From: Actinomycetota bacterium
GTDB taxonomy: Bacteria; Actinomycetota; Acidimicrobiia; Acidimicrobiales; BP-101
Length of the DNA: 47,759 nucleotides
Direction of reading: 5' to 3'
NCBI GenBank assembly: GCA_030838265.1
Contig: JAUTXA010000070.1
Span: 1-47,759 of the forward strand
Below the pieces are notes generated by a model. It had not been told where the DNA came from and did no database searches. It was given only the letters and a program-made list of their open reading frames with translations. Positions 4,076 through 29,318 of the stretch are shown one piece after another. The translations under genes and the position numbers were made by a program. How positions within the stretch are numbered: position 1 is the first letter of the stretch; the number at the start of each line of letters is the position of its first letter.

Positions 4076-4100
4076 GGCGCAACGCTAGCCTCGCCCCACC

Positions 4101-5207
4101 GTGATCCGTCTGGAATCGGTCACCAAGCGCTTCGGCAGCGGCGAGGTGGCGGTCGACAACCTGTCTCTCGAGGTGCCAGCGGGCGAGCTGTGCGTGCTCG
4201 TTGGGCCGTCGGGCTGTGGCAAGACGACCACGATGAAGATGATCAACCGGCTCATCGAGCCGACGTCAGGGCGCATCTTCCTCGGCGACGAGGAGGTCAC
4301 CCATGTCCCGGTCGTGCAGCTGCGGCGGCGCATCGGCTACGTCATCCAGCAGGTCGGTCTCTTCCCGCACCAGACCGTCGCTCAGAACGTGGCCACCGTC
4401 CCCCGGATGCTGGGGTGGGATCGCCACCGGGTCCAGGCGCGCGTCAACGAGCTCCTCGAGCTCGTCGGGCTCAGCCCGAACGACCACGCCAAGCGCTATC
4501 CACACCAGCTCTCGGGCGGGCAACGGCAGCGAGTCGGCGTGGCCCGGGCTTTGGCCGCCGACCCGCCCGTCCTGCTCATGGACGAGCCCTTCGGGGCCAT
4601 CGATCCCATCACCCGCGACCGTTTGCAGGGGGAGTTCCTCCGGCTGCAGGCCGAGCTCAAGAAGACCATCGTGTTCGTCACCCATGACATCGAAGAAGCG
4701 GTGCGCATGGGCGACCGAATCGCCATCCTGCGCGCCGGGGGGATGCTCGAGCAGTACGACTCCCCGGCTCAGATCCTGGGCAAGCCGGCCACCCCTTTCG
4801 TGGCCAGCTTCGTCGGCGCCGACCGGGGCCTGAAGCGGCTCAGCGTGACCGCCATCGACCGAGCCGATCTCGAGAAGCCGCCGGTCCTGCACATCGACGA
4901 CGACCTGGTCGAGGCCCGGGCCCGCCTGCAAGGAGAAGGCGCGGACTGGGCCGTCGTCCTCGACACCGATGAGCACCTCCACGGCTACATCGGCCAGGAC
5001 GACGTCGTCGGTGACGGCGTGGTGGGCGACCGGGCCAAGCGGATGGAGGCATGGGTGCCCGTCAACGGCACCCTGAAGCAGGCATTTTCGGAGATGCTTC
5101 AGCACGACGCGGCGTGGGTGGCCGTGCTCGACGGCGATCGCTACATCGGCGTGCTCACACCCGACTCATTACATCAGGCCTTGCGGCGCTCGATCAGCGA
5201 GGCGTGA
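4101..5207 (+). CDS. compatible-solute ABC transporter ATP-binding protein with C-terminal CBS pair (OpuBA/OpuCA/ProV-like)
   Basis: Walker A GPSGCGKTT, signature LSGGQRQR, Walker B LLMDEPFGA. About 110-aa C-terminal CBS-like region. GTG start. Confidence 0.9.
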   Translation: MIRLESVTKRFGSGEVAVDNLSLEVPAGELCVLVGPSGCGKTTTMKMINRLIEPTSGRIFLGDEEVTHVPVVQLRRRIGYVIQQVGLFPHQTVAQNVATVPRMLGWDRHRVQARVNELLELVGLSPNDHAKRYPHQLSGGQRQRVGVARALAADPPVLLMDEPFGAIDPITRDRLQGEFLRLQAELKKTIVFVTHDIEEAVRMGDRIAILRAGGMLEQYDSPAQILGKPATPFVASFVGADRGLKRLSVTAIDRADLEKPPVLHIDDDLVEARARLQGEGADWAVVLDTDEHLHGYIGQDDVVGDGVVGDRAKRMEAWVPVNGTLKQAFSEMLQHDAAWVAVLDGDRYIGVLTPDSLHQALRRSISEA

Positions 5208-6480
5208 TGCGCTCGATGCCCCGGGTGTAGGGCCGCAGGGCCTCGGGCACGACCACCGACCCGTCGGGCTGGCGGTTCGTCTCGATGATGGCGGCCAGGA
5301 CGCGCGGGACGGCGAGCGCCGAGCCGTTCAGGGTGTGGACGAATTCGATGGGCCCGCCATCGGCTCGGCGGAAGCGGATGTTGGCCCGGCGGGCCTGGTA
5401 GTCGGTGAACCACGAGACAGACGACGCCTCGAGCCAGAGGTCCGCGCCCGGCGCGTAGACCTCGATGTCGAACTGCTTGTGATGCGATTGGCCGAGGTCG
5501 CCGGTGCAGATCTCGAGGACGCGGTATGCCAGGCCGAAGGCCGCCACCGACCCGATGGCGCGCTCGAGGATCTCGTCCAGCATGGCGGGGGCCTGCTCCG
5601 GCGTCGTATAAGCGAGGGTTTCGACCTTGTCGAACTCGTGACTGCGAAGCAGGCCGCGCGTGTCGCGGCCGGCCGACCCCGCCTCTCGCCGGTAGCACGG
5701 CGTATAGGCCATGAGCCGCATCGGCAGGTCGGCCTCGTCGACGAGCTCGTCCCGTCCCAACGAGGTGAGTGGGACTTCGGCCGTCGGGATGAGCCAGAGG
5801 TCGTCCCGTTCGATGAAATAGGCGTCGTCGGCGAACTTCGGCAGCTGCCCGGTCGCTGTGAGCGTGTCGGTGGTGACCAGCGTCGGCGGCCGGATCTCCT
5901 CGTAGACGTCGGCGTTGCGGTCGAGGGCAAACTGGCACATGGCCCGGGCCATGGTCGCGCCCGGCCCCCGCAGCATGGCGAACATCGAGCCCGAGATCTT
6001 GGCCGCCCGCTCGTTGTCGAGGATGCCGAGGGCAGGGCCAACCTCCCAGTGCGGCACCCGCTGGTGCTCCTCGTATTGATCTGGGTCGTAGCCGACGGTG
6101 CGGACAATGGGGTTGTCCTCGTCGCCCGCCCCGTCGGTGACATCCGCGGCCGGAAAGTTGGGAATGCGCAGCAGGAGATCCCGCACCTGCTCCTGAAGGC
6201 CGTCAGCCTCGGCCTCGAGAGCCTGGACCTCGTCGCCCCGCAGCCGACTCTGCTCGCGGAGGCGCTCGCCCTTGGCCTTGTCGCCGGCCTTGAAGGCGGC
6301 GCCCACTTCCTTCGACAAGGTGTTGACCTCGGCTCGGAGCTCGTCGCGCGTGCTCGTCACCTCTCGCCATTTGGCGTCGAGGTCGCGCAGACGCTCGAGG
6401 TCGGCCCGATCGACCTTCTTACGAGCCAGCGAGGCCGCCGCGGCCTCGAAGTCGTCGCGGACGCGGCGAATGTCGATCAT
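5194..6480 (-). CDS. serS: seryl-tRNA synthetase
   Basis: Full-length class II SerRS: N-terminal coiled-coil arm (MIDIRRVRDDFEAAAASL...) and catalytic core (TAEVPL, YTPCYRREAGSAGRDTRGL, GSALAVPR). ATG at 6480 preferred over the in-frame GTG at 6492. Confidence 0.93.
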   Translation of the reverse strand: MIDIRRVRDDFEAAAASLARKKVDRADLERLRDLDAKWREVTSTRDELRAEVNTLSKEVGAAFKAGDKAKGERLREQSRLRGDEVQALEAEADGLQEQVRDLLLRIPNFPAADVTDGAGDEDNPIVRTVGYDPDQYEEHQRVPHWEVGPALGILDNERAAKISGSMFAMLRGPGATMARAMCQFALDRNADVYEEIRPPTLVTTDTLTATGQLPKFADDAYFIERDDLWLIPTAEVPLTSLGRDELVDEADLPMRLMAYTPCYRREAGSAGRDTRGLLRSHEFDKVETLAYTTPEQAPAMLDEILERAIGSVAAFGLAYRVLEICTGDLGQSHHKQFDIEVYAPGADLWLEASSVSWFTDYQARRANIRFRRADGGPIEFVHTLNGSALAVPRVLAAIIETNRQPDGSVVVPEALRPYTRGIERITPR

Positions 6481-13651: not shown

Positions 13652-14655
13652 CGGATGACGAACTCGCCCTTCATCGAGGAGTGGAAGTCGCAGACGTACA
13701 CGTAGGTGCCGGGACCAGGCGTGGTGAAGCGATACACCGCCCGGCCGTGGTCGATGGGCCGGCCGTTGAAGATGGGCTTCCCCTTGGTGTCCTGGCTCGT
13801 GTACACGGCCCAGTTGTGGAATGTGCCGGTGTCCTTGTTGGTGAAGTCGACCTCGACCTGCTCGTCGGCGGCGAAGGTGATCACGGCGTCGCTGGGCACC
13901 ACGAAGGCCGTGTTCAGAGCGACGACATCCTGCTCCGGGGTCTCGACCTTGTGCTCGTTGACGATCTTGCGCTCGCCGGCGGCGGCGAAGCTCACTCCGG
14001 CCACGGCCACCACGACGAAGGCGGCGGCCGCGAAGCCCGTCAACGCCGCGGAGGTGAGGCGGGGTCGAGCCGCGATCACAAAGAAGGTGGTGAGGACCAG
14101 CGCGCCCACAACGATGAACGTCACCGTGGCGGCCTGTTCGGGGATGTGGAGCAGGACGCGGGAGACGCCGATGGCGATGAAGGCGGCGACGAGGAAGGCG
14201 CCGACCGGGAGGGCGACGGGGGCCACCAGGCGGTTGCCCACCGCAGCGCTGTTCCGAGGGGTGAAGCTGTGGTGCTCCCGCCAGGCCTGACCTGTCCAGC
14301 CCAGACCGGCGATGAAGGCGATGATGAGCCCGGCGATCAGGGCCGGAGCACCAACGACCGTCGTCACAGCCAGCACGGCGGCCGAGGCGGCGAGGACAAG
14401 GGGCCACGGGCTGGCGCCGGCCGCCGCGGTCGGAGACACCGGGCGACGGTCGGGGGGCGCATCGGCGGTGACGTAGGGCTCGAGGTCCTGGCCCGCCGTC
14501 GCCGTCACGGCCAAGGCGATCACCAGAGCACCGAGGGCCAGACCGAAGAAGATCAGCTCACCCTGTCGGTCGCCAGTCGTCGCCCGGTAGCCCAGGGCGG
14601 TCGCCAAAGCGAAGCCGGCGAGGGCGAAGTAGAGCTTGCTGGCGAGGCTGAACAA
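13648..14655 (-). CDS. polytopic (about 7 TM) membrane protein with C-terminal type-1 (blue) copper cupredoxin domain
   Basis: C-terminal 335 aa of track ORF 13648..15261. TTG at 14655 is preceded by GGGAG at 7 nt. Amicyanin/halocyanin-like ligand pattern FHNW ... YVCDFHSSMKGEFVI (H280, C322, H325, M328, numbered from the TTG). Confidence 0.7.
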   Translation of the reverse strand: MFSLASKLYFALAGFALATALGYRATTGDRQGELIFFGLALGALVIALAVTATAGQDLEPYVTADAPPDRRPVSPTAAAGASPWPLVLAASAAVLAVTTVVGAPALIAGLIIAFIAGLGWTGQAWREHHSFTPRNSAAVGNRLVAPVALPVGAFLVAAFIAIGVSRVLLHIPEQAATVTFIVVGALVLTTFFVIAARPRLTSAALTGFAAAAFVVVAVAGVSFAAAGERKIVNEHKVETPEQDVVALNTAFVVPSDAVITFAADEQVEVDFTNKDTGTFHNWAVYTSQDTKGKPIFNGRPIDHGRAVYRFTTPGPGTYVYVCDFHSSMKGEFVIR

Positions 14656-19251: not shown

Positions 19252-19712
19252 GCTTTGTCGGGCCCATCGGGCGGAACCGCGATGGGTCGTTCAAGCTGCG
19301 GCTGGGGCCACAGGAGCGCGAGCTGCTGCGGACACTGCCGGGCCAGCTCCTCGAGCTGTTCGGCAGCGCCGACCCCTCGCTGCGACGCCTCTTCCCACCC
19401 GCCTACACCGATGACGCCGAGCGGGAGGCCGAGTACCAGCGGTTCATGGCCGACGACCTCGAAGCCCGCCACCGGGCCGCCCTTGAGATCCTCGCCAACA
19501 CGGCTGACAACCCCCGCCTCGACGAGGAAGAGCTGACGGCGTGGATGGGCGCCCTCAACGACCTCCGGCTGGTGCTCGGCACCCGCATCGACGTGCAAGA
19601 GGACATGGTCGACATCGACGACGATGATCCCAACGCCCCCGCCCTCCATCTCTATGGGTATCTGACCTACCTGCAGAGCGAGGTCATCGATGCCCTCGCC
19701 AGCGGGCTCTGA
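19248..19712 (+). CDS. DUF2017-like protein (conserved actinobacterial clpS neighbour)
   Basis: 154-aa acidic protein directly after clpS. Sequence (LFPPAYTDDAEREAEYQRF..., WMGALNDLRLVLGTRIDV) matches my recollection of DUF2017. Not verified against a database. Confidence 0.65.
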   Translation: MSFVGPIGRNRDGSFKLRLGPQERELLRTLPGQLLELFGSADPSLRRLFPPAYTDDAEREAEYQRFMADDLEARHRAALEILANTADNPRLDEEELTAWMGALNDLRLVLGTRIDVQEDMVDIDDDDPNAPALHLYGYLTYLQSEVIDALASGL

Positions 19713-19731
19713 CCGGGTAAGGAGGCAAGCC

Positions 19732-21579
19732 ATGTCACGGACACGTCTCTCGTTGTTGGCCATGGCAGTCGTGGCCGCCACTGTTCTGCTACCGGTCGAG
19801 GCGGCCCGGGCGGTGCCGAAGCGGTCGGTGGCCACGAGCGGCTTCGTCCTCAACGGGCGCGGCCAGCTCACCCGGTACGCGGCGGGCGAGTCCACACCCC
19901 CCGGCGTCACCAACGCCCCAACGTGGGGATTCGACATCGCGCGGGGCATCGCTACCTACCAGTCGGGCACCGGCGGCGTCGTCCTCGACGGGTACGGCGG
20001 GGTCCACGGGTTCGGCTTCACCGGCACGGGCCGCGGCGCCGATGCCCGACGCACCCCCTACTGGAACGGCTGGGACATTGCGAGGGGGGTGGCGCTGCTG
20101 CCTGACGGCTCGGGCGGCTATGTCCTCGACGGTTACGGCGGGCTCCACCCCTTTGCCGTCGGCCCGAACGCCGTGCCGCCGCCAGCCAATGGCGGGGCCT
20201 ACTGGAGCGGTTGGGACATCGCCCGCGGCATCGCCCTGCTGCCTGACGGCTCGGGCGGCTATGTCCTCGACGGGTACGGCGGGCTGCACCCGTTCGGCGT
20301 CGGGACCCACGCTCCGGCACCCGCCGCCAGTGGTGGGGCCTACTGGAGTGGGTGGGACGTGGCGTCCGACATCACACTGCTGGCCGACGGCAGCGGCGGG
20401 TACATCCTCGATCGCTACGGGCCCCTCCACGGCTTTGCCACCACCAATCCGGTGGTCCCGGCATCACCCACGACGACCGGCTATCCCGCGGGTGATGCCC
20501 AAGGCGTGGCGACCTACGTCCACCCGACGGCAGCCGCCCCGTCGATCACCGTGACCTCGGCGGTGACAGGCCTCGACATCCCGTGGGATCTGGCCTTCGC
20601 CCCCGACGGCACCATGATCTTCACTGAGCGAGGCGGGCGCCTCAGCGCCCGGGTCGGCACCACCACTGTGATGATGGCCGACGCCCCCAACGTCTATGCC
20701 ACGGGAGAAGCCGGTCTGCTAGGCCTCGCCCTCGACCCCGACTACGCCACCAACCGCCTGCTCTACGCCTGCCAGAGCTACAGCAACGGCTCGACCAACG
20801 ATGTCCGGGTGCTCGTCTGGCACGTGGCCGACGACTATTCGTCGGCCACGGTCGTCACCAACCCACTGGTGGGCGGCCTGCCCCTCAACACCACGACCTT
20901 CCCCGGCCGCCACAGTGGTTGTCGGCCCCGCTTCGGACCCGACGGCTACCTGTGGATCGGCACCGGTGACACCGGCGTCGGCACCAACCCCCAGTCGCTG
21001 ACGTCGCTCGGCGGCAAGGTGCTGCGGGTGAGCAAGACCACAGGCGCGGCCGCGCCCGACAACCCCTTCTCGGGGGCGAGCGCCCGCATCTACAGCTACG
21101 GCCACCGCAACGTCCAGGGCATGGCGTGGCGGCCGGGGACGACACAGATGTTCAACGTCGAGCATGGCCCCGACATCGACGACGAGGTCAACCTCCAGGT
21201 GCGCGGGGCCAACTACGGATGGGACCCCATCCCTGGCTACAACGAGGGCGTCCCCATGACCGACTTCGCCAAGTTCCCCAGCGCGGTCGGCGCGGTCTGG
21301 AGCTCGGGCAGTCCCACGGTGGCCACGTCCGGCGGCACCTTCCTGTCGGGCTCGGCCTGGGGGGCTTGGAACGGCGCTCTCGCCGTGGCCTGCCTCAAGG
21401 GCAGCCAGCTCATGGTGTTCGGGCTCAATCCGGCCGGCACGGTGGTCACGCGGGAGGACAGCGTCATCAAGGACAAGGGCCGGCTGCGCACCCCGGTGCT
21501 CGGACCAGACGGGAATCTCTACATCGCGACCGGCAACGGTGGTGGCAACGACGTGATCTTGAAGGTCGTGCCCGGCTAG
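19732..21579 (+). CDS. secreted PQQ-dependent sugar (glucose/sorbosone) dehydrogenase-like beta-propeller with N-terminal 47-aa repeat array
   Basis: ATG at 19732 with strong AAGGAGG RBS at 19718-19725. Signal peptide MSRTRLSLLAMAVVAATVLLPVEAARA. C-terminal domain carries GSDH-type motifs (LDIPWDLAFAPDG, GEAGLLGLALDPDY, GGKVLRV, YSYGHRNVQGMAW, GPDIDDEVN, GANYGWDP). Confidence 0.8.
   Translation: MSRTRLSLLAMAVVAATVLLPVEAARAVPKRSVATSGFVLNGRGQLTRYAAGESTPPGVTNAPTWGFDIARGIATYQSGTGGVVLDGYGGVHGFGFTGTGRGADARRTPYWNGWDIARGVALLPDGSGGYVLDGYGGLHPFAVGPNAVPPPANGGAYWSGWDIARGIALLPDGSGGYVLDGYGGLHPFGVGTHAPAPAASGGAYWSGWDVASDITLLADGSGGYILDRYGPLHGFATTNPVVPASPTTTGYPAGDAQGVATYVHPTAAAPSITVTSAVTGLDIPWDLAFAPDGTMIFTERGGRLSARVGTTTVMMADAPNVYATGEAGLLGLALDPDYATNRLLYACQSYSNGSTNDVRVLVWHVADDYSSATVVTNPLVGGLPLNTTTFPGRHSGCRPRFGPDGYLWIGTGDTGVGTNPQSLTSLGGKVLRVSKTTGAAAPDNPFSGASARIYSYGHRNVQGMAWRPGTTQMFNVEHGPDIDDEVNLQVRGANYGWDPIPGYNEGVPMTDFAKFPSAVGAVWSSGSPTVATSGGTFLSGSAWGAWNGALAVACLKGSQLMVFGLNPAGTVVTREDSVIKDKGRLRTPVLGPDGNLYIATGNGGGNDVILKVVPG
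19924..20440 (+). repeat. in-frame 141-bp (47-aa) tandem coding repeats, about 4 copies
   Basis: Protein repeats W(N/S)GWD(I/V)A(R/S)(G/D)(I/V)(A/T)LL(P/A)DGSGGY(V/I)LD(G/R)YG(G/P)LH(P/G)F. The two central copies (about 20062-20202 and 20203-20343) are also near-identical at the DNA level. Confidence 0.8.
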
Positions 21580-21581
21580 AG

Positions 21582-22433
21582 GTGCCCGACGAGCGTCGCA
21601 TCCGCGGAGTGGGCGGCGTCGGGCTGGCGGTGCGCGTCTGGCCTGACGGGGCCGGTGCTCCATTCGTGCTCGTCCACGGCCTGGCCTCGAGCGCCCGGCT
21701 CTGGGACGGCGTGGCCGCTGAGCTCCAAGCCCTCGGCCATCCCGTGGCCGCCCTCGACCAGCGCGGCCACGGCCAATCCGACAAGCCGACCCGCGGCTAC
21801 GACTTCGCGACCGTCACCAGCGACCTGGTGGCCGTCATTGACGGCATCGGCTTCGACCGGCCCGTGCTCGCGGGCCAGTCATGGGGCGGGAACGTCGTCC
21901 TCGACCTGGCTTGGCGGCGGCCAGACCTGATGCGAGGGATCGTCTGTGTCGACGGTGGCACCATCGAGCTCAAGCGCCGGTTCCGGCGGTGGGGCACCGT
22001 GGCCCACGCCATGGCTCCGCCGACCCTCACCGGCACCACCCGACGAGAGCTCGAGGACCGCATCACCGCCCTGCACCCCGACTGGCCCGATGCCGGCATC
22101 GCGGGGGTGATGGCCTGCTTCGAGGACCTGCCCGACGGAACGGTCAGGGCTCGCCTCAGCCGCGACAACCACCTCGAGATCCTGCGCCACCTCTGGAAGC
22201 ACCGTCCGTCGAGGCTGTACGCCGACATCAAGGTGCCAGTGCTCCTCCTTCCTGCCGACGACGGCCACACCGACTGGGGTCCCGACAAGCGGGCCGGAGT
22301 CGACGCCGCGGCCGCGGCCATCCCTCACGCCCGGGTCCACTGGTTCACCGCCGACCACGACGTCCACGCCCAGCACCCCGATCAGGTCGCGGCGGTCATG
22401 CACGCCGCCACGGAAGACGGATTCCTGGCGTGA
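21582..22433 (+). CDS. alpha/beta-fold hydrolase
   Basis: In-frame GTG 2 nt after the dehydrogenase stop. HGLASS oxyanion region, nucleophile elbow GQSWGG, C-terminal His region DHDVHAQHP. Confidence 0.75.
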   Translation: MPDERRIRGVGGVGLAVRVWPDGAGAPFVLVHGLASSARLWDGVAAELQALGHPVAALDQRGHGQSDKPTRGYDFATVTSDLVAVIDGIGFDRPVLAGQSWGGNVVLDLAWRRPDLMRGIVCVDGGTIELKRRFRRWGTVAHAMAPPTLTGTTRRELEDRITALHPDWPDAGIAGVMACFEDLPDGTVRARLSRDNHLEILRHLWKHRPSRLYADIKVPVLLLPADDGHTDWGPDKRAGVDAAAAAIPHARVHWFTADHDVHAQHPDQVAAVMHAATEDGFLA

Positions 22434-23701
22434 CGGCGCTCCCCCGCCTCCTCGCCATCATGGGATCGGGCGAGACCAGCCCGACCATGGTGACGACGCA
22501 CCGCCGGCTGCTCTCGCGGCTCGGCGCTGCGCCCGTCCCCGCTGTTCTCCTCGACACGCCGTTCGGCTTCCAGGAGAACGCCAGCGAGCTGACGGCCAAG
22601 GCGGCGGCTTACTTCCACGACAGCGTCGGCCAACCCATCGAGGTGGCGTCGTACCGCTCGGCGGCGGCCAGCGCCCATGACATCGAGCTGGCGCTGAACC
22701 GGGTGCGCGACGCCCGCTACGTCTTCGCCGGGCCGGGGAGCCCCAGCTATGCCTTGCGCCAGTGGCAGTCGTCGCCCCTCCCCGACCTGCTTCGGGCCAA
22801 GCTCCAGACCGGCGGCTGCATCACCTTTGCCAGCGCCGCGGCGCTGACCATTGGCTTGGTCACCGTCCCGGTCTACGAGATCTACAAGGTCGGTGAGGAT
22901 CCTCACTGGCTGGCCGGACTCGACCTGCTGGCCGAGGCGGGTCTGAAGGCCGCCGTGATCCCTCACTACGACAATGCCGAAGGCGGCACCCACGACACCC
23001 GCTTCTGCTACCTCGGCGAGCCCCGCCTGGCCCGCCTCGAGGCCGAGCTACCCGACGATGCCTTCGTGCTCGGCGTCGACGAGCACACCGCGCTCATCCT
23101 GGACCTCGACGAGGGCACGGCCGAGATCGTGGGGCGGGGGAAGGTGACGGTGCGTCGCCACGGTCGCACGATCGAGCGAGCCGCGGGCACCACACTGGCG
23201 ATCGGCGACCTCGGCAGTGCTGACGGGACGACGAAGGCACGAGCCGGCGGCGATGAGCCGCAGGGCGCGAGCCTGGCCCAGGAGTCGGGCCGGCCGTCCC
23301 TGCTCGCCGCGGTGGCCGAGCACGAGGCCGCCTTCGACGCCGCCCTGGCGGCGGGCGACGCGCCCGGGGCGGCGGCGGCCATCCTGGCCGTCGAGGAGGA
23401 CATCCGGTCGTGGTCGGCCGACACCCTCCAGAGCGACGAAGGTGACCGAGCCCGCGCCACGTTGCGGTCGATGATCACCAGGCTCGGCCAGGTTGCCCAG
23501 CGCGGGGCTCAGGACCCGGCCACCGTGGTCGGGCCCTTCGTCGACGGGCTTCTGGCCAGCCGGGAGCGGGCCCGGACCGACAAGCGTTTCGCCGACGCCG
23601 ATGCCGTCCGCGACCTGTTGCTCGGGCTGGGAGTCGAAGTCAATGACGCTCCGGACGGCACAACGTGGCACCTACAATCGGACCGCTCAGCGCCGTCCTA
23701 G
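22430..23701 (+). CDS. fusion protein: peptidase S51/cyanophycinase-like (class I GATase-like) N-domain plus CysRS-like C-terminal (DALR-2/anticodon-binding-like) domain
   Basis: GTG overlaps the upstream TGA (GTGA). N-domain has LAIMGSGETSP ... FASAAALT ... LGVDEHTALILD, reminiscent of the S51 family. The C-terminal 170 aa (FDAALAAGDAPGAAAAILAVEE ... RERARTDKRFADADAVRDLLLGLGVEVNDAPDGTTW) resembles the C-terminus of cysteinyl-tRNA synthetase or MshC. Assigned by eye only. Confidence 0.55.
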   Translation: MTALPRLLAIMGSGETSPTMVTTHRRLLSRLGAAPVPAVLLDTPFGFQENASELTAKAAAYFHDSVGQPIEVASYRSAAASAHDIELALNRVRDARYVFAGPGSPSYALRQWQSSPLPDLLRAKLQTGGCITFASAAALTIGLVTVPVYEIYKVGEDPHWLAGLDLLAEAGLKAAVIPHYDNAEGGTHDTRFCYLGEPRLARLEAELPDDAFVLGVDEHTALILDLDEGTAEIVGRGKVTVRRHGRTIERAAGTTLAIGDLGSADGTTKARAGGDEPQGASLAQESGRPSLLAAVAEHEAAFDAALAAGDAPGAAAAILAVEEDIRSWSADTLQSDEGDRARATLRSMITRLGQVAQRGAQDPATVVGPFVDGLLASRERARTDKRFADADAVRDLLLGLGVEVNDAPDGTTWHLQSDRSAPS

Positions 23702-23776
23702 CCCCCATCGTCTAGCGGCCCAGGACACCGCCCTTTCAAGGCGGCAGCACGGGTTCGAATCCCGTTGGGGGTGCCA
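23701..23776 (+). tRNA. tRNA-Glu (anticodon TTC), CCA encoded
   Basis: Cloverleaf: acceptor GCCCCCA/TGGGGGT, anticodon stem CCGCC/GGCGG, loop CTTTCAA, T-arm ACGGG-TTCGAAT-CCCGT, then GCCA. Confidence 0.9.
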
Positions 23777-23779
23777 CGG
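23730..23779 (+). repeat. 50-bp direct repeat, copy 1 (3' half of tRNA-Glu; att-like)
   Basis: GCCCTTTCAAGGCGGCAGCACGGGTTCGAATCCCGTTGGGGGTGCCACGG is identical to 25946-25995. Confidence 0.9.
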
Positions 23780-23940
23780 CGAAAGCCCAGGTAAGCCCGG
23801 ATGCAGCTGCTGGCCCACACCCCTTCGCCACGAATTCCCTGACCAGAGGGGGTATCGCGTGTCACCCCTCTCCGGTAGGCTGGAAATCACAGCGGTGTAA
23901 GTCATCCACAGGCGGCACCGAGTTGCCTGTGGAAAACAGA

Positions 23941-23967
23941 AACGGCACCCGTACCAGGGGTGCCGTT
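23941..23967. other. perfect 10-bp stem / 7-nt loop hairpin inside the island leader
   Basis: AACGGCACCC-GTACCAG-GGGTGCCGTT. A second hairpin, CCACAGGC-N11-GCCTGTGG, lies at 23906-23932. CTGTGGAAAAC occurs twice (23927-23937 and 24071-24081). Confidence 0.4.
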
Positions 23968-24101
23968 CCATGGAGCGTTGATATGCGTACCAAGCATGAA
24001 CCTACTGGGCCGAGCAATGGTTAGCAAGCATTTCTTGCACACCACGCAACGCCGAGGCGCTCCCTGGCCCCTGTGGAAAACCCACGACCAGGAGATCAAT
24101 C

Positions 24102-24929
24102 ATGACATTGGCAATTGCCGTCGCTACTGGCGACGGCTTGGTAGTTGCGGCTGACAGCCGTACGACTCTGACCGGTGTGAACAGCCACCGGCGGGTGCTG
24201 AGCGATCACGCCCACAAGGTGTTCCAGGTCGGACAGCTGGCAGTGGCGACCTACGGATGGGGGATGCTTCTCGATCGCAATATCGCCGGTCACATCGGTG
24301 AGTTTGCTCGCTCATTTGGCGAAGATCCCCAATTCACCCCGGAGACCCTTGCCAGGGCGTTGGCGGCCTACTTCCAGGAGCTGATGAACAAACACATCGG
24401 CGCGGACTACGACAAGCTGCTGCCGGGCGTCGATGAGTTGGGCTTCATCGTCGCTGGATACGACGGGCAGAGCGGTGCGATCTGGGAAGTGGGCCTACCC
24501 AGCGGTACGGTCCAGCTGCAGAGCCAGACCCAGACGGGCGGGGCCCTGTGGCGCGGGCAGCCGGACGTCATCGTCCGGCTGGTCAAGGGCTACGACATCG
24601 TCGCGCTCAAGGGCCGGGTTGGTGCCGGGCCCGCTGAGACCACGAAGGCCTTGGATGCGCTAGAGCCCGACCTGCTGAGCCTCGAGTACGTGATCGACTT
24701 TCAGCGGATGAACCTGCAGGATGCGATCGACTTCGCCGTCCTGGGGATCCGGACGACGATTGACGTGCAGCGTCTCACCTTGGGCCGAGCCTGCGACACG
24801 GAGCTCTCTTGGCCTGGCGTCGGCGGCCCGATCGAAATAGCCGCCGTCACCCCGCGCGGCGGCTTCAAGTGGATCCAACGCACGAGCTTGCAGGGGGAGA
24901 GGCCGGCTGGGACGGCCGAACTCACCTAG
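24102..24929 (+). CDS. proteasome beta-subunit-like Ntn hydrolase (orphan, no propeptide)
   Basis: AGGAG RBS 7 nt upstream of the ATG. N-terminus is M-TLAIAVATGDGLVVAADSRTT, so Thr1 is exposed after Met removal, Asp17 lies in AAD, and Lys follows in HKVF. GFIVAGYDGQSGAIWEV matches the proteasome beta GxD..G..y motif. Confidence 0.65.
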   Translation: MTLAIAVATGDGLVVAADSRTTLTGVNSHRRVLSDHAHKVFQVGQLAVATYGWGMLLDRNIAGHIGEFARSFGEDPQFTPETLARALAAYFQELMNKHIGADYDKLLPGVDELGFIVAGYDGQSGAIWEVGLPSGTVQLQSQTQTGGALWRGQPDVIVRLVKGYDIVALKGRVGAGPAETTKALDALEPDLLSLEYVIDFQRMNLQDAIDFAVLGIRTTIDVQRLTLGRACDTELSWPGVGGPIEIAAVTPRGGFKWIQRTSLQGERPAGTAELT

Positions 24930-25223
24930 CGACTTGTGTTCCCGCCTGTCCTTCGCCCTGCGTTCTTTTCCGGCGGGACGTAGGTATCACGCCGCCTGTC
25001 CGCCTCAGTGACCCCGCGACTGCCGGGGTTCTGGGGTCGGGGCGGCGGCGGAGGTGTCGACGATGACGATGAAGGCACGACTCCACTTTGGCACGTCACG
25101 GTCCGGACCTGTAACCGCGACGCACCGGGCCTTCTTCAAGGATCGTCGACGCCGAGTCCACGCCCTGAATGTCACGCCGGCTGGGTACCGACCGGCGTCC
25201 AACCAACGAGGGGAGCTTCAACC

Positions 25224-25841
25224 GTGAGCGACGCATCTGGCGGGCCTGGCTGGTGGCAGGCGAGCGACGGCAAGTGGTACCCGCCGGAGCAAGCGGACCC
25301 AACGTCGGCCATGCCGGCCACAGAGGCGGCGGTCGTGGCCGCCGGGCGTCGCTGGAAGACCTGGCAGGTGGCACTCGTGGCCATTCTGGCGTTCATCATC
25401 GGAATCGCGGCCGGGAGTTCCACGAAGAAGACCGCAACGACCTCGGCCACCGGCACCACCGTGGCCGAGAACACCACGCTGGCCCCGACGACCACCGTCA
25501 CAACGGCAGCTCCCACAACCACGACAGCTCGACCCACGACGACCACGACGGCTCCACGAGGGCCGCGTCAGGTCGGCCAGTTCACGGGCTCGAGCAGCAA
25601 GCAGACGCCGACCTTCACCATCGACCCAGATGCCAAGTCGTGGACGATCGCCTGGAACATGACGGGGTCGGACAACAACAACATCACGCTGAAGCACCCG
25701 CCCGACGAGTACGACAAGCTCGTGGTGAACGAGATCGGGCCGACGAAGGACCAGTCGCAGTTCTATACGACCGGCACCTACTTCCTCGACGTCGGCGGCT
25801 CAGGGTCGTGGAGCATCACCGTGACGGAGTCGTTCACCTAA
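25224..25841 (+). CDS. single-pass membrane protein with Trp-rich N-terminal motif, Thr/Pro-rich linker and small extracytoplasmic domain
   Basis: GTG at 25224 with GGGGAG 8 nt upstream. GWWQASDGKWYPPE motif, TM WQVALVAILAFIIGIAAG, linker TTTVTTAAPTTTTARPTTTTTAP. No recognisable catalytic motif. Confidence 0.5.
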   Translation: MSDASGGPGWWQASDGKWYPPEQADPTSAMPATEAAVVAAGRRWKTWQVALVAILAFIIGIAAGSSTKKTATTSATGTTVAENTTLAPTTTVTTAAPTTTTARPTTTTTAPRGPRQVGQFTGSSSKQTPTFTIDPDAKSWTIAWNMTGSDNNNITLKHPPDEYDKLVVNEIGPTKDQSQFYTTGTYFLDVGGSGSWSITVTESFT

Positions 25842-25945
25842 ACGAGTGTCATCTCTCTGTCATCACGGTTGACGGACGCAGGCACCGTCAGACGGACGAG
25901 CCGTGGCATAGACAAGGCGACTACGCGTGAGGAAAACCGAGGGCT

Positions 25946-25995
25946 GCCCTTTCAAGGCGGCAGCACGGGTTCGAATCCCGTTGGGGGTGCCACGG
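25946..25995 (+). repeat. 50-bp direct repeat, copy 2 (tRNA-Glu 3'-half fragment; att-like)
   Basis: Identical to 23730-23779. It lacks the 5' half of the tRNA, so it is a fragment rather than a gene. Confidence 0.9.
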
Positions 25996-26007
25996 AGGCG
26001 TTTACTC

Positions 26008-26037
26008 GGTCTGCGCGACAGAGGGGCCCCGAGGGGC
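26008..26037. terminator. GC-rich perfect hairpin between the island end and the 3' end of the S8 protease gene
   Basis: GACAGAGGGGCC-CCGAGG-GGCCCCTCTGTC, a 12-bp stem. No clear U-tract on either strand. Confidence 0.45.
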
Positions 26038-26065
26038 CCCTCTGTCAGCGTCTTCGTGGTTCGGC

Positions 26066-28945
26066 TCAGATTTGCACGATGGTGGCGCTGGCCGACCTGA
26101 CGTTGCCGGCCTGGTCGTAGCCAGAGGCCTTGATCGTGTAGGTGCCGGGCAGCAGGTTGGTGGGCCCGCTGATGGTCCACGTGGCGGACGGAGTGCCACA
26201 GCCCGTGCAGGTCGCCGTCCCGTTGAAGACCTGCTTGTTGGTGACGTCGTACAGCTTGACGACCACCGAGCTGACCTGCCGGTTGTCGGTCGCCGCACCG
26301 GAGATGGTGAGGGCGTCACCCGGCAAGAACACGGAGTTCGTCTTGGGCTGACTGATGGTCACGTACACGCCGGCGGCATCGACATCGAAGGTGACCGGGG
26401 CCGAGGCCAGGCTCACGTTTCCTGCCGCGTCAGTCGCCGTCGCCGTGACGGTGTGGAGGCCCTCGGTCATGTTGGCGGCCGTGAACCATCTGCCGTCGGT
26501 CCCGGTCGTGGCGGTTGCCACGAGGTTCGCATCCTCAAGCACCCTGACGGACGACCCGACTTCCGCCGTGCCGCCGAGGATCGGCCGATATGCGTTCAGC
26601 GATCCGGACGACGGGGTGAGGATCACCGGTGCGTCGGGGGCGGTCACGTCGACCGTCTCCGGGACCACGACGGTCCGGATCACGTTCTCGCGGTGGACGC
26701 CGTCGAGGTAGAGCTTGGCCCGGACCGTGTACGTCCCCGCCGGCTTCGACGAGAAGTCGATGTCGCCGCTCCAGGTCCAGCTGGTGCCCGATCCGGAGAC
26801 GGTGGCGGGGAGGTCGGGCCCACCATTGACGGTGAGTGAGACGGCCGGCGCCTCGCCGGTCGTGCTGTAGTGGAACCCGTAGGGAGCGGCCTGCTGCGGG
26901 TTGCTCAGATAGGTCGCACCCAGGCCGCCCGGGGCGACGTCGGCGATGGTGCCGATCAGCGACGTGACAACCGCGTTGTGGGCCAGGCTATGGCCAGCGC
27001 CGCCGACGTAGGCCGAGTAGGGCACGAGGAAGTCGACGGTGTTGTTCGTCGCATCGACGTGCACGTCGGTCGCCGGAGCCTGATTCGTGGTGCTGGCGGC
27101 CGATGCCGTGGCGTGGGCGCCGGGCGCCACCAGCACGTTCGTCCACGCCTCGTTGCCGTTGACGTTCTGGTTGATGCGGAGCGTCACATTGGTATTGGGG
27201 CTGCCGGTGTCGGACACGTTGCGGACACCGATCGTGTAGCGCACGCCCGTCGGCTCCTCGCCGACGGTGAGGCCCGAGATGTCAGCGGCGCCGGGGCCGT
27301 TGTAGTCGCCGGCGTCGCCGGAGATGATCTGCCGGGAGGCCTCAGTGGTGTCGGCCGTGCCGGTGAAGGTCGTGGGACCTGACACCTCCGTGCCGGCCGA
27401 CGGGGAGTCGATGGCGATGCTCAGGGGCGAGATGCTGAAGCTGTTGGCGTGGTCGCCGCCCAGGGCGTCGATGGCGGCCTGCACGTCGGCCAGACCAGCG
27501 CCCTTGTCGAACGACGATGTCGAGCCCGGGTTCTGCGGGTCATCGACGTACGCACCGGGGTTGGCCGCGACCACCGGGATCTTGTGGGCCGTGGCCTGGA
27601 TCAAGGACTCGACCTGGGCGGGCGTGAGCAGCGGATTCTGCTGCAGGATCAGGGCCACGATGCCGGCCACGTGCGGCGTGGCCATCGAGGTGCCGCTCAA
27701 GCTGGCGTAGTAAGGCGACCATGCCGGCGCGGGACCGGTGCTGCAGATGGGCGTGGCGTGGTTGCACGTGGAGGTGATGAACGAACCAGGCGCCGCCACG
27801 TCGGGCCAGGTGGTGGCGTCGCTGGCCAGGCCGCGGCTCGAGCTGCTGTCGAGGACGCTGTCGCGTGCGCCGTAGGTGAGGTCGTCGTAGTTGGCGACCG
27901 CGATCACGCCCGGCGTGGGGTTCTTGGCGTCGCCGCTCATCGTGTCATTGCTGCCCTCGTTGAGGCTGTCGCCTGTCACCGCGTCGGAACCACCGTCGTT
28001 GCCGGCGGCGAAGAGCACCGTGATGCCCTTGCTCACGGCCTTGTCGACCAGCTTGGTGACCAGGCTCGAGGGATCGAAGGCGCAGCCGCCCGGGCAACCC
28101 CATGAGTTGGTGATGACCCGGATGTTCGGGGTGACCTTGTCCCAGTTGTCGATGACCCACTGGAACGACGAGACGGCCTGCTGGGTGATGATGCTGTCGC
28201 CCTCACCCGTGCCGAAGCCGTAGAGGCCGGCCTCGGGGGCAACGCCCTTGAAGTAGCCGTTCGAGGCTGAGCCGTCACCAGCGACGATGCCGGCGACATG
28301 GGTGCCGTGGCCGCTCGAGGTGTCGCTGTCCTGGGTCTCCTGGAAGGTGACCTGGTAGCACTGGTCAGCTTTGTCGCCGGAGCTGTTGACCAGCACCGGC
28401 GTGGCGCACACGACCTTGAAGTTCTTGACGACATGGTTCTTGAGGTCGGGGTGGGTGCCGTCGATGCCGGAGTCGATCTCGGCCACGCCGATGCCCTTGC
28501 CCGTGAGGATCTGGTTGCTGGCGTCGCGGTAGCGCCCGCCATAGACCGGGCTCTGGAGGGCCTCGACGCGCGTGGCGTAGCGGCTGTTGTCGAACATCTT
28601 GTAGGTGCGGTTGGGCTCGATGTAGCTCACCGCCCCGTCATGCTGCAGGGCCTTGAACTGGGCGGCGGTGCCCACCGCAAAGGCGGCGTCGACGTCAGAG
28701 AAGTCCTGGGTCAGCTTGAGGCCGTGGGCGGCGAGGACTGATGCCGGGCTGGCGCCGTGCACCACGTTGACGAAGGCGCCGATCGTGGCGCCGGGCTTGG
28801 CCTTGGCCAGCTGGGCGGCCAGGCTGCCTTCGACCCGCGGGCCGGGCTTGGCGGGCTGCGGTCCGGTCAGGGCGTGAGCACCAGTGATGCCCACCATGGT
28901 CAGGGCCGCCAGGGCGGCGGCCGCGATCGATCGGCGTCTGAGCAC
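26066..28945 (-). CDS. secreted subtilisin-family (S8) serine protease with C-terminal Ig-like domain array
   Basis: Track ORF trimmed to the GTG at 28945 (AGGAG 5 nt upstream). Signal peptide VLRRRSIAAAALAALTMVGITGAHA. Catalytic triad motifs VAEIDSGID (Asp), HGTHVAGIVAG (His) and GTSMATPHVAGIVAL (Ser). About 450 aa of beta-rich repeat domains follow. Confidence 0.85.
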   Translation of the reverse strand: MLRRRSIAAAALAALTMVGITGAHALTGPQPAKPGPRVEGSLAAQLAKAKPGATIGAFVNVVHGASPASVLAAHGLKLTQDFSDVDAAFAVGTAAQFKALQHDGAVSYIEPNRTYKMFDNSRYATRVEALQSPVYGGRYRDASNQILTGKGIGVAEIDSGIDGTHPDLKNHVVKNFKVVCATPVLVNSSGDKADQCYQVTFQETQDSDTSSGHGTHVAGIVAGDGSASNGYFKGVAPEAGLYGFGTGEGDSIITQQAVSSFQWVIDNWDKVTPNIRVITNSWGCPGGCAFDPSSLVTKLVDKAVSKGITVLFAAGNDGGSDAVTGDSLNEGSNDTMSGDAKNPTPGVIAVANYDDLTYGARDSVLDSSSSRGLASDATTWPDVAAPGSFITSTCNHATPICSTGPAPAWSPYYASLSGTSMATPHVAGIVALILQQNPLLTPAQVESLIQATAHKIPVVAANPGAYVDDPQNPGSTSSFDKGAGLADVQAAIDALGGDHANSFSISPLSIAIDSPSAGTEVSGPTTFTGTADTTEASRQIISGDAGDYNGPGAADISGLTVGEEPTGVRYTIGVRNVSDTGSPNTNVTLRINQNVNGNEAWTNVLVAPGAHATASAASTTNQAPATDVHVDATNNTVDFLVPYSAYVGGAGHSLAHNAVVTSLIGTIADVAPGGLGATYLSNPQQAAPYGFHYSTTGEAPAVSLTVNGGPDLPATVSGSGTSWTWSGDIDFSSKPAGTYTVRAKLYLDGVHRENVIRTVVVPETVDVTAPDAPVILTPSSGSLNAYRPILGGTAEVGSSVRVLEDANLVATATTGTDGRWFTAANMTEGLHTVTATATDAAGNVSLASAPVTFDVDAAGVYVTISQPKTNSVFLPGDALTISGAATDNRQVSSVVVKLYDVTNKQVFNGTATCTGCGTPSATWTISGPTNLLPGTYTIKASGYDQAGNVRSASATIVQI

Positions 28946-29138
28946 CGTCGCTCCTCTCGTTGTGTCCTTCTCCGTTGAAGGGGCACAGCGTCGGAGTCTT
29001 CGACCCCCCGATCCTTTCGCCCCCAGCACCTCTGGAGTTCGACAGCGCTTGACCGTTTCCTTCTTTTTGTTCTCTCACGCCGAGCCGACGCCTGGGAGGG
29101 CCCGACGGCAGGCCCGCTACACTCCGCAGGTCCACATT

Positions 29139-29213
29139 GGTCCTGTGGTGCAGTTTGGAGTGCACGCCGGCCTGTCAAGCCGGAGGTCGCGGGTTCAAAT
29201 CCCGTCAGGACCG
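29139..29213 (+). tRNA. tRNA-Asp (anticodon GTC)
   Basis: Acceptor GGTCCTG/CAGGACC, anticodon stem CCGGC/GCCGG, loop CTGTCAA, T-loop TTCAAAT. No encoded CCA. Confidence 0.85.
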
Positions 29214-29237
29214 CGCAGTAGCCTCACCGCTGCACAC

Positions 29238-29310
29238 GGTCGGGTAGCTCAGTCGGCAGAGCACGCGCCTGAAAAGCGCGGGGTCACCGGATCGACGCCG
29301 GTCCCGACCA
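29238..29310 (+). tRNA. tRNA-Phe (anticodon GAA)
   Basis: Acceptor GGTCGGG/CCCGACC, D-arm GCTCAGTCGGCAGAGC, anticodon stem CGCGC/GCGCG, loop CTGAAAA. The T-loop reads ATCGACG, which is atypical. Confidence 0.8.
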
Positions 29311-29318
29311 CTCACGTT

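Follow-up and report, generated by a model that had tools for sequence, protein, structure and literature searches.

An integrase-less two-gene island between perfect att-type repeats at a tRNA-Glu gene of an uncultured Acidimicrobiia bacterium

The DNA at positions 23780-25945 (2,166 bp) of the window, a 47,759-nt stretch of contig JAUTXA010000070.1 from an Acidimicrobiia assembly (GCA_030838265.1), is very probably foreign material that entered by site-specific recombination and is now stranded there as the CIME-like remnant, or a hitch-hiker, of an integrative element. Integration into the tRNA gene had been proposed from the att-type repeat in a sequence-only reading, which listed an imperfect repeat, synteny in all relatives and a composition like that of the flanks as findings that would speak against it. 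All three were examined: the two 50-nt copies are perfect, no synteny was seen in relatives of the same order, and the computed composition of the island differs from both the flanks and the genome. The proposal is therefore supported.

Results

Repeat and target site

The repeat search returned a single family of direct repeats, composed of two 50-nt copies that are 100% identical and lie 2216 bp apart (Table 1). The earlier description of this duplication, as 47 nt from the 3' part of tRNA-Glu plus 3 nt, was reproduced at 50 of 50 nt on re-checking. The block begins within the 5' arm of the anticodon stem, at tRNA position 30, and continues through CCA to the 3 following nucleotides, and the element-side half of attL corresponds to the 3' 47 nt of tRNA-Glu(TTC). 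Identity ends sharply at both borders, with no similarity in the flanks, and a perfect 50-mer repeat cannot have arisen by chance. At the distal copy no tRNA is called by ARAGORN and the Rfam tRNA model scores just 22.5 bits, so that this copy is regarded as an orphan. The Rfam search gave no match to an RNA family other than tRNA.

Table 1. Coordinates of the features in and around the island (window positions)
Feature	Position	Strand	Basis or remarks
tRNA-Glu(TTC), intact	23701..23776	+	ARAGORN; Rfam tRNA 61.5 bits
attL core, 50-nt identity block	23730..23779	+	Repeat search, 100%; sharp identity borders
Left non-coding arm, 322 bp, GC 0.596, three strong hairpins	23780..24101	+	GC; RNA fold z = -3.6 vs shuffles
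CCTGTGGAAAAC, 12-mer inverted pair	23901..23937	.	23901-23912 minus, 2 mismatches; 23926-23937 plus, exact
Terminator-like hairpin, 12 pairs, T-run on minus strand	23939..23969	-	Promoter/terminator scan
CCTGTGGAAAAC, third copy, exact	24070..24081	+	~20 bp 5' of ORF1 ribosome-binding site
ORF1, 275 aa, proteasome-like Ntn (Thr1) hydrolase	24102..24929	+	Profile, fold, catalytic residues
ORF2, 205 aa, GTG start	25224..25841	+	Translation
CGTGAGGAAAAC, fourth 12-mer copy, 2 mismatches	25926..25937	+	9 bp 5' of attR
attR core, orphan tRNA-Glu 3' half	25946..25995	+	Repeat search; original downstream flank then follows
S8 subtilase with Ig-like domains	26066..29029	-	Pfam; GC3 0.90, native composition
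tRNA-Asp + tRNA-Phe, downstream partners in ancestral Glu-Asp-Phe cluster	29139..29311	+	ARAGORN; relatives

Composition and contents of the island

The lower GC content claimed for the enclosed DNA was borne out by the GC and GC3 check. The island has a GC content of 0.642, compared with 0.699±0.019 for 2166-bp windows of the genome, which places it at the 0.1 percentile. ORF1 falls below the 1st percentile in overall GC and, with a GC3 of 0.81, at the 7th percentile of long genes. The island is single-copy in the genome. It contains two plausible genes, each with a Shine-Dalgarno-like sequence upstream, and its non-coding arms total ~720 bp.

The left arm is unusually structured when compared with shuffled sequences. 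Four matches to the 12-mer CCTGTGGAAAAC with at most 2 mismatches are found in the window, all within the non-coding ends of the island; the inverted pair is a candidate protein-binding or arm-type site, and the copies may represent retained arm sites. The terminator-like hairpin on the minus strand has no minus-strand gene leading into it and is possibly the relic of a lost leftward gene. When the sequences preceding the hydrolase gene were compared across loci, a shared DNA or RNA element was seen only among the Solirubrobacteraceae copies (L041, L044 and L039) and not in the window.

HMM searches in six frames, run over the entire assembly, identified no Phage_integrase domain (PF00589) in the contig and no Resolvase domain (PF00239) anywhere in the assembly, and the island holds no such gene beside the att site in any of the six frames. 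The only tyrosine recombinases of the genome, from an assembly that is 70% complete, are XerC/XerD-like. A deleted integrase has left no scar that could be detected, the orphan minus-strand terminator being the sole possible trace. Neither island ORF is a relaxase, a T4SS component or a recombinase, and phage structural, replication and lysis genes are all absent from positions 23780-25945. These searches agree with the prior claim that the segment encodes two proteins only and no recombinase. The 2.2-kb DNA gave no match when compared with phage and plasmid collections, and the databases searched yielded no parent element, the nearest relative of the element having ~55% protein identity. As judged from its sequence, the present element is non-autonomous, consisting of two att cores that look intact, arms, and two cargo genes in the absence of a recombinase.

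ORF1 is a proteasome-like hydrolase

ORF1 carries no propeptide and starts Met-Thr. Residues T2, D18 and K39, which match Thr1, Asp17 and Lys33 of the proteasome beta chain, are invariant across 29 homologs, and a profile comparison with the PDB returned proteasome beta (E = 6e-4) with Thr1/Asp17/Arg19/Lys33 aligned. The AF2 model (pLDDT 84, pTM 0.83) predicts an alpha-beta-beta-alpha Ntn fold. A Foldseek search with this model retrieved 20S subunits and Anbu with probability 1.0 and TM scores of 0.44-0.61, and comparison with a phage 'proteasome beta' gave TM 0.61/0.75. In the model, a helical insertion (helices 166-192) is placed between H3 (154-162) and H4 (205-226). The match to Pfam PF00227 is 15.3 bits, below the gathering cut-off of 22.4; ORF1 is a distant member of the proteasome superfamily that lies outside the curated model. 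The assignment as a proteasome-like Ntn hydrolase, first made in the sequence-only reading, is confirmed by profile search, fold search and catalytic residues.

Uncharacterised proteasome homologs of prokaryotes and phages comprise 22 groups, among them PMI, AAH, DAH and PPH (Fuchs, Alva and Lupas 2021, PMC8665760). Like ORF1, these homologs include Thr1 proteins that lack a propeptide and have the Thr1/Asp17/Lys33 triad, and some of the groups are phage-borne (PMC8665760). The PMI groups have an insertion between H3 and H4 (PMC8665760) as in the ORF1 model, a likeness that refers to the published description only. AAH was reported in no actinobacterial phage (PMC8665760), whereas close homologs of ORF1 do occur in Actinomycetota phage-like contigs. 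PADLOC-DB 2.0 yielded no match for ORF1 and contains no model for either island protein. Our best guess, drawn only from neighbouring genes (TIR, kinase, a Shedu remnant and restriction genes) and the prophage moron position, is that this cargo is a phage-exclusion or defence protease expressed by the lysogen or the island; the defence-type function suggested beforehand has the same basis. Against such a role stands, besides the missing PADLOC match, one clade of the family in which the gene is chromosomally stable and has housekeeping-type neighbours.

ORF2

ORF2 is composed of an N-terminal WWxxxDGxWYPPE motif, one TM helix, a Thr/Pro-rich linker and a small beta-rich C-terminal domain, in keeping with the small membrane protein noted previously. 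It had no significant match in Pfam, NCBIfam or PADLOC, and its weak PADLOC match covers the low-complexity region only. The Pfam links of ORF2 homologs to New_glue and Ltp were rejected, as other domains or the low-complexity linker account for them. A role as conserved partner of ORF1 was likewise rejected, since ORF2 is missing from every other hydrolase locus.

The hydrolase family at other loci

At 50% identity, the Thr1 hydrolase family to which ORF1 belongs falls into more than 1,000 clusters; it is uncharacterised and outside Pfam. Its other loci in genome contigs were found by profile search, a single-protein query having returned 0. Two of them are integrase-less, repeat-flanked islets in which the hydrolase homolog lies ~330-360 bp from the att repeat: a 4.2-kb islet at tRNA-Ile (L041), which also holds an IS and a Shedu remnant, and a 4.3-kb islet at the 3' end of an acyl-CoA dehydrogenase gene (L005), which also carries TIR and kinase genes. 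The arrangement of a tRNA, ~330 bp and then the hydrolase gene is seen in the window, L041 and L044. A further homolog occurs in a serine-recombinase island at tRNA-Asp (L042), and others are found on phage contigs with a terminase (L074) or with tail genes and a resolvase (L075). In Firmicute-type prophages, distant homologs come last, directly behind the holin and endolysin genes at the prophage end, which is the 'moron' position. The neighbours of homologs in mobile contexts are often TIR, kinase, Shedu or restriction genes.

Some 23 syntenic chromosomal copies show no mobility signs and have housekeeping-type neighbours, with no AAA+ unfoldase partner seen beside them. In the tree these copies form one clade (100/100) within a grade of copies from mobile contexts, and the ORF1 of the window belongs to the grade. 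The family is mostly carried by mobile elements.

The locus in relatives and in an independent contig

The ORF1 hydrolase is present in 0 of 40 same-order genomes, most of which have a tight tRNA Glu-Asp-Phe cluster (~230-290 bp, or Glu-Asp gaps of ~70-130 bp). This comparison of the tRNA-Glu locus in relatives had been suggested beforehand and revealed no synteny for the island. The S51/CysS_C gene upstream is common to the window and to G010, G002 and G028. In the same order, tyrosine integrases adjoin islands at tRNA-Glu(CTC) and tRNA-Phe (L063 and L071), and in another genome (L070) a tRNA-Glu 3' half stands as an orphan whose crossover region is that seen in the window; both observations favour an integrase-type origin. 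The ORF beside that orphan was considered as an integrase and rejected, as it is a DJ-1/PfpI protein. The case shows the tRNA Glu-Asp spacer to be a hot spot for insertions within the order.

The S8 subtilase gene also lies within the ancestral Glu-Asp spacer and has no att remnant. Its interpretation as a second att-bounded island was rejected, because no third, degenerate att copy above shuffled controls could be found between attR and tRNA-Asp. The gene is outside the 2.2-kb element and is probably an older or separate insertion.

A JGI metagenome contig of 7410 bp (L090) is 99.96% identical to window positions 19676-27082 and contains the island together with both repeats. Because it differs from the window by 3 SNPs in the flank, the two are separate sequence records, and the identical structure in an independent contig indicates that the island is not an assembly artefact. 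When metagenome contigs were scanned for exact occurrences of the attR/empty-site junction, 0 matches were obtained, and even L090, which holds the junction, was missed; a search for island-free contigs by exact-protein look-up of the upstream flank gene returned L090 only.

Discussion

The arrangement is best explained by integration of an element whose attP contained a 50-bp copy of the tRNA-Glu(TTC) 3' half. Recombination with the chromosomal gene would have left the element-derived copy to complete the working tRNA (attL), with the original chromosomal 3' half displaced 2.2 kb downstream as the orphan (attR). A crossover in the anticodon stem/loop with an identity block of this size is the product of tyrosine integrases of phages and islands, and the combination of an anticodon-region crossover with a 3'-half identity block is reportedly typical of these enzymes. 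As the enzyme itself is absent, we infer the tyrosine-integrase step from the crossover position and the block size. Renewed movement would be possible only through a tRNA-Glu-specific integrase supplied in trans or through CIME-type accretion, in which an incoming element would integrate into an att core of the island and excise together with it.

As to how the island reached its present size, reduction of a temperate phage or integrative island, with retention of its att-proximal 'moron' genes, is slightly more likely than a naturally miniature element. The latter would be a still active, non-autonomous cargo cassette with working attL, attR and arm sites that never had an integrase and was routinely moved by the tRNA-specific integrases of co-resident phages or islands. 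Such an origin would account for three independent integrase-less, repeat-flanked islets with similar spacing of the hydrolase from one att (window, L041 and L005), for the clustering of CCTGTGGAAAAC in both arms, for the lack of a detectable integrase pseudogene, and for window repeats that are perfect even though the orphan copy is free of tRNA selection. However, the targets of these islets are unrelated (tRNA-Glu, tRNA-Ile and the 3' end of a protein gene) and their arms have no DNA in common, so that they do not represent one element family. Moreover, the IS and Shedu remnant of L041 are signs of decay, other homologs reside in full phages and in one recombinase-bearing island, and neither a second copy nor a circular form was found. 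We consider a miniature origin conceivable but doubtful.

The remaining explanations carry far less weight. The orphan could be what is left of a tandem tRNA-Glu duplication whose 5' half was deleted, the genes having been inserted by a route other than site-specific integration. Tandem tRNA genes are common in bacteria and the Glu-Asp spacer is variable in this order, but a second tRNA-Glu(TTC) gene in the cluster was seen in none of the relatives examined. The identity, furthermore, starts exactly in the anticodon stem and stops 3 nt past CCA between dissimilar flanks, the interior is foreign in composition, and at other loci, too, members of this cargo family lie between repeats of the target gene's 3' end; a duplication is accordingly very unlikely. 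Even less credible is a chimeric join across the 50-bp repeat that brought DNA of another organism into the MAG contig. The MAG is fragmented (301 contigs, 70% complete) and the GC content of the island atypical, yet the independently assembled L090 has the same arrangement through both junctions, and a chimera would not yield a second tRNA half followed by the correct downstream flank. Finally, the att-adjacent position of the proteasome-like protein would be explained if it were the mobility enzyme of the islets, and its gene does occupy the usual place of an integrase in the window, L041 and L044, which is positional evidence only. With the fold and catalytic residues of a peptidase, no DNA-binding domain, chromosomal homologs devoid of mobility signs, a Firmicute-type prophage homolog in the post-lysis moron slot and a serine recombinase encoded by the L042 island itself, this possibility is close to negligible.

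The favoured reading, site-specific integration followed by stranding, brings the island near to several known systems. It resembles CIMEs in having two att cores that appear intact at the sequence level, cargo, and no integration or transfer genes. CIMEs, in contrast, are derivatives of ICEs in Firmicutes whose mobilisation by accretion has been shown by experiment; the island has no ICE relative, is known from sequence alone, has phages among its likely parents, and resides in an uncultured member of the Acidimicrobiia. Decayed tRNA islands and prophage remnants, including the degenerated elements and scattered partial tRNAs of tycheposon islands, share with the island borders that are marked by partial tRNA copies. 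Repeated or old integration events leave behind tRNA fragments and cargo that lack a functional integrase (10.1101/2020.12.28.424599). The island differs from tycheposon islands in its unusually small size of 2.2 kb, in the perfection of both repeats and in having no integrase fragment, whereas fragmented integrases are usually still visible in tycheposons. Prophage morons, or lysogenic-conversion genes, provide a further parallel, in that distant homologs are the last gene at the prophage end and ORF1 abuts attL; in the window, however, no phage gene is left and ORF1 reads from attL into the island instead of out to the element end.

A broader proposition, which we put forward as speculation and consider improbable as it stands, is that propeptide-less Thr1 hydrolases are mobile phage-exclusion or anti-defence proteases that travel next to the att site of temperate phages and islands. 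Minimal cassettes flanked by att sites, such as the present one, would then constitute a selected, recurrent hitch-hiking route, with re-mobilisation by tRNA-specific integrases in trans or by accretion.

The island is of a textbook type and is therefore one more example rather than a new principle. It is nonetheless a very clean minimal case, with perfect att cores, two genes and no recombinase, from an uncultured lineage of the Acidimicrobiia. It also draws attention to a large unnamed family of proteasome-like peptidases that recurs at att ends, both of phages and of islets, and the two-gene cassette is a handy starting point for expression and phage-challenge work.

A duplicated tRNA-Glu 3' half bounds a foreign two-gene segment

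ARAGORN identified three tRNA genes in the window, and a repeat search returned one outstanding direct repeat, the two 50-nt copies of which are 100% identical and lie 2216 bp apart, exactly as the sequence-only reading had described. The first copy comprises positions 30–76 of tRNA-Glu with 3 further nucleotides, and thus extends from the 5' arm of the anticodon stem to just past the encoded CCA. Aligned with their flanks, the two copies show abrupt borders of identity at either end. The second copy is not recognized as a tRNA by ARAGORN and scores just 22.5 bits (E = 0.15) with the Rfam tRNA model. Within the whole assembly the 50-mer is present at these two sites only, and a third match (91% identical) corresponds to the tRNA-Glu(CTC) gene on a different contig. 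The features are summarized in the table.

Features of the tRNA-Glu island and its surroundings
Feature	Position	Strand	Size	Remarks
tRNA-Glu(TTC)	23701–23776			ARAGORN
Repeat copy 1 (attL)	23730–23779		50 nt	
Terminator-like hairpin	23939–23969	minus		strong, with T-run
ORF1	24102–24929		275 aa	starts Met-Thr
ORF2	25224–25841		205 aa	
Repeat copy 2 (attR)	25946–25995		50 nt	
S8 subtilase	26066–29029	minus	987 aa	several Ig-like domains; inside ancestral Glu|Asp spacer
tRNA-Asp	29139–29214			ARAGORN
tRNA-Phe	29238–29311			ARAGORN

Since the source MAG is fragmented (2.5 Mb in 301 contigs) and 70% complete, an assembly artefact had to be weighed. A homolog search with ORF2 returned a protein of 100% identity encoded on a JGI metagenome contig of 7,410 bp (L090), which matches positions 19676–27082 of the window with 99.96% identity and three SNPs, all in the left flank. 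This contig holds the whole island and both 50-mers, so that the same junctions are found in two independent assemblies, and an artefact is thereby ruled out as the origin of the structure.

Between the repeats (2,166 bp) the GC content is 0.642, versus 0.699 (sd 0.019) for all 2,166-bp windows of the genome, which corresponds to the 0.1 percentile. The GC3 of ORF1 (0.81) is at the 7th percentile of long genes and its overall GC below the 1st. ORF1 and ORF2 are the only genes of the segment, in which no Phage_integrase or Resolvase signal was observed. When the whole assembly was searched in six frames, Phage_integrase matched two genes only, both on other contigs and with the length and motifs of XerC/XerD, and Resolvase matched none. 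Among 40 same-order genomes, none encodes a homolog of ORF1, in a comparison at order level in which the MAG is the sole member of its family; the tRNA cluster is tight in many of these genomes. The segment is foreign, bounded by a duplicated tRNA 3' half with the tRNA left intact, and without a recombinase. Site-specific integration into a tRNA gene, a less GC-biased interior and a two-gene, recombinase-free cargo had been proposed from the sequence alone, and this reading is supported by the duplication, the composition and the absence from the same-order genomes.

The Glu|Asp spacer is a variable site

The same 40 genomes were searched with the three tRNAs of the window for the ancestral site. 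The Glu-Asp-Phe trio lies within 232–290 bp in six of them, and the Glu-Asp gap is approximately 70–120 bp in four others; comparison of these loci shows the compact cluster as the apparent ancestral arrangement. The gene upstream of tRNA-Glu in three genomes is an ortholog of the S51/CysS_C gene of the window, and hence the left flank is conserved and the Glu|Asp spacer variable. Six same-order genomes carry 1.6–9.9 kb of unrelated genes within this spacer, which is a variable hot spot in the order.

In the window the spacer measures 5.4 kb and is composed of the 2.2-kb island and the S8 subtilase gene, with a native-like GC3 of 0.90. No third, degenerate att copy was found between attR and tRNA-Asp; the subtilase is therefore an insertion apart from the island, and probably an older one. 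In another genome of the order, G031, tRNA-Asp-Phe is preceded at a distance of 14.6 kb by an orphan tRNA-Glu 3' half (L070, 15623–15665; 98% identical, beginning near tRNA position 33). The crossover region appears to be the same, which points to recurrent use of the tRNA-Glu att site.

The cargo encodes a proteasome-like hydrolase

The Pfam Proteasome match of ORF1 is sub-threshold (15.3 bits versus a cut-off of 22.4). In the PDB, a profile built from 29 homologs matched beta chains of the proteasome (E = 6e-4), with the invariant T2, D18, R20 and K39 of the family aligned onto beta-subunit Thr1, Asp17, Arg19 and Lys33. The AlphaFold model (pLDDT 84, pTM 0.83) is an Ntn sandwich with additional helices between H3 and H4, for which Foldseek returned 20S subunits and Anbu (probability 1.0) and a phage 'proteasome beta type-2 subunit' (TM 0.61/0.75). 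Together these matches and residues uphold the earlier assignment as a proteasome-like Ntn hydrolase. Removal of Met1 would expose the threonine as Thr1, so that autoprocessing is not needed. An H3/H4 insertion may block double-ring stacking in proteasome homologs (Fuchs et al., PMC8665760).

This unnamed family is large, with 1,176 clusters at 50% identity in a profile search (E ≤ 1e-10), nearly all of 260–280 aa and matched from residue 1; almost no member has a Pfam annotation. PADLOC has no model for ORF1. We infer that ORF1 is a peptidase, or a connectase-like ligase, with a specific target.

ORF2 has an N-terminal WWxxxDGxWYPPE motif, common to many Acidimicrobiia proteins, followed by a single TM helix, a linker rich in Thr and Pro, and a C-terminal domain of small size that matched no family. 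It is missing at every other hydrolase-bearing locus and is thus not a conserved partner of the hydrolase.

Resident and mobile copies of the hydrolase

The hydrolase profile identified 51 loci in species-representative genomes and 14 in IMG/VR. In approximately 23 high-GC genomes of the Acidimicrobiales, the gene has a host-like GC3 (~0.95) and occupies one and the same conserved place in the chromosome, between an upstream aminoglycoside-phosphotransferase-like kinase and a downstream membrane metallophosphoesterase (both assigned by eye), and with no AAA+ partner nearby. These resident copies form a single clade (100/100) within a grade of variable-context copies, where the protein of the window sits on a long branch. 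The clade suggests that a mobile gene was domesticated once.

Two further islets have the geometry of the island. In L041 (Solirubrobacterales), tRNA-Ile is followed after 360 bp by the hydrolase, and a second copy of the tRNA 3' half, 100% identical over 41 nt, lies 4.2 kb downstream; the islet has no integrase, and its other contents are an IS256-type transposase, a DUF2442 gene and a remnant of Shedu SduA_C (a sub-threshold match, E = 5e-5). Its attR copy (13788–13861) has an internal 17-bp tandem duplication (GAAGAGGTCCCTGGTTC). L044 has the same tRNA-Ile geometry, with the contig ending before any possible second repeat. In L005, 84-nt repeats (89% identical) of an acyl-CoA dehydrogenase gene 3' end enclose 4.3 kb in which ~340 bp separate the hydrolase from the orphan copy; a TIR protein, a Ser/Thr kinase and a 132-aa ORF are also encoded there, and again no integrase.

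L042 (3240–16360, Solirubrobacterales MAG) is a tRNA-Asp island of ~11 kb that encodes, besides the hydrolase, a large serine recombinase, a Replic_Relax protein and an IS110-like transposase (by eye). The C-terminal coding end of the recombinase gene overlaps the tRNA, and truncated copies of recombinase C-terminus plus tRNA fragment (3260–3563 and 5030–5332) are marks of earlier integrations. The hydrolase, a Prok-JAB peptidase and a ubiquitin-like beta-grasp protein make up a suggestive trio, with the IS110-like insertion between them.

Elsewhere the hydrolase adjoins a CAP12-type TIR protein and an integrase fragment (L073), shares a contig with terminase and an Mrr nuclease (L074), is flanked by tail/tape-measure genes and a resolvase (L075), or lies near rve, HTH_17 and a restriction-modification pair (L008/L013). 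In this last locus (L013, 2005–8011), a ~46-nt imperfect palindrome (…GGAGATTGTTGGTGTCGGAGAGCCGAC…) occurs in at least 3 copies 1.3–2.1 kb apart that bracket single genes, the hydrolase among them, resembling an integron attC-like or REP-like cassette array. Near the hydrolase locus L043 of a Conexibacteraceae MAG, a 43-bp unit is repeated in tandem 6–7 times without spacers (331–630). On five Firmicute-type prophage contigs of IMG/VR, a distant homolog (24–30% identity, Met-Thr start kept) follows holin and endolysin as the final gene, 200–900 bp from the contig end, the classical moron position.

Origin of the island

Integration of the island would have been catalysed by a tyrosine integrase, for which a crossover in the anticodon stem/loop and an identity block of ~50 bp are reportedly typical. 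Such an origin is supported by L063 and L071, where tyrosine integrases accompany same-order islands at tRNA-Glu(CTC) and tRNA-Phe, and by the orphan half in G031. L063 (G011) is an example of an island en route to integrase loss: a mutator-type (IS256-like) transposase, assigned by eye, interrupts the integrase by tRNA-Glu(CTC) (3208–5458), and a tRNA fragment (positions 29–76) lies 4 kb away.

The recombinase-free state could have arisen by internal deletion that left only the accessory genes nearest att of a phage or island parent; alternatively, the element could be a naturally non-autonomous hitch-hiker. The recurrence of integrase-less islets with att at both ends and the perfect preservation of the orphan tRNA copy argue for the hitch-hiker, as does the clustering of the 12-mer CCTGTGGAAAAC in the non-coding ends of the island, which hold all four of its matches in the window (≤2 mismatches), one of them 9 bp from attR; these copies could be arm-type or regulator binding sites. 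Reduction is favoured, however, by the full-size phages and the recombinase-bearing island in which members of this gene family lie close to the ends, by the signs of decay in L041 (the IS and the Shedu remnant), and by the three islets sharing neither targets nor arm sequences. A reduced remnant of a phage or island parent is slightly ahead; the databases searched yielded no parent element, and neither an empty site nor a circular form was found. The left arm (322 nt) has more structure than shuffled controls (z = -3.6). The minus-strand hairpin has no minus-strand gene upstream of it and may be left over from a leftward gene since lost.

By either route the island falls within the published definition of a CIME (cis-mobilizable element), and it resembles the degenerated-element remnants and scattered partial tRNAs of tycheposon islands (10.1101/2020.12.28.424599). 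It is an integrase-less, att-bounded islet in a tRNA gene, of a type already known. The most notable by-product is the cargo hydrolase family, recurrently placed at att ends; by association with its genomic contexts, one might guess at a role in phage exclusion, in defence or in service to phage.
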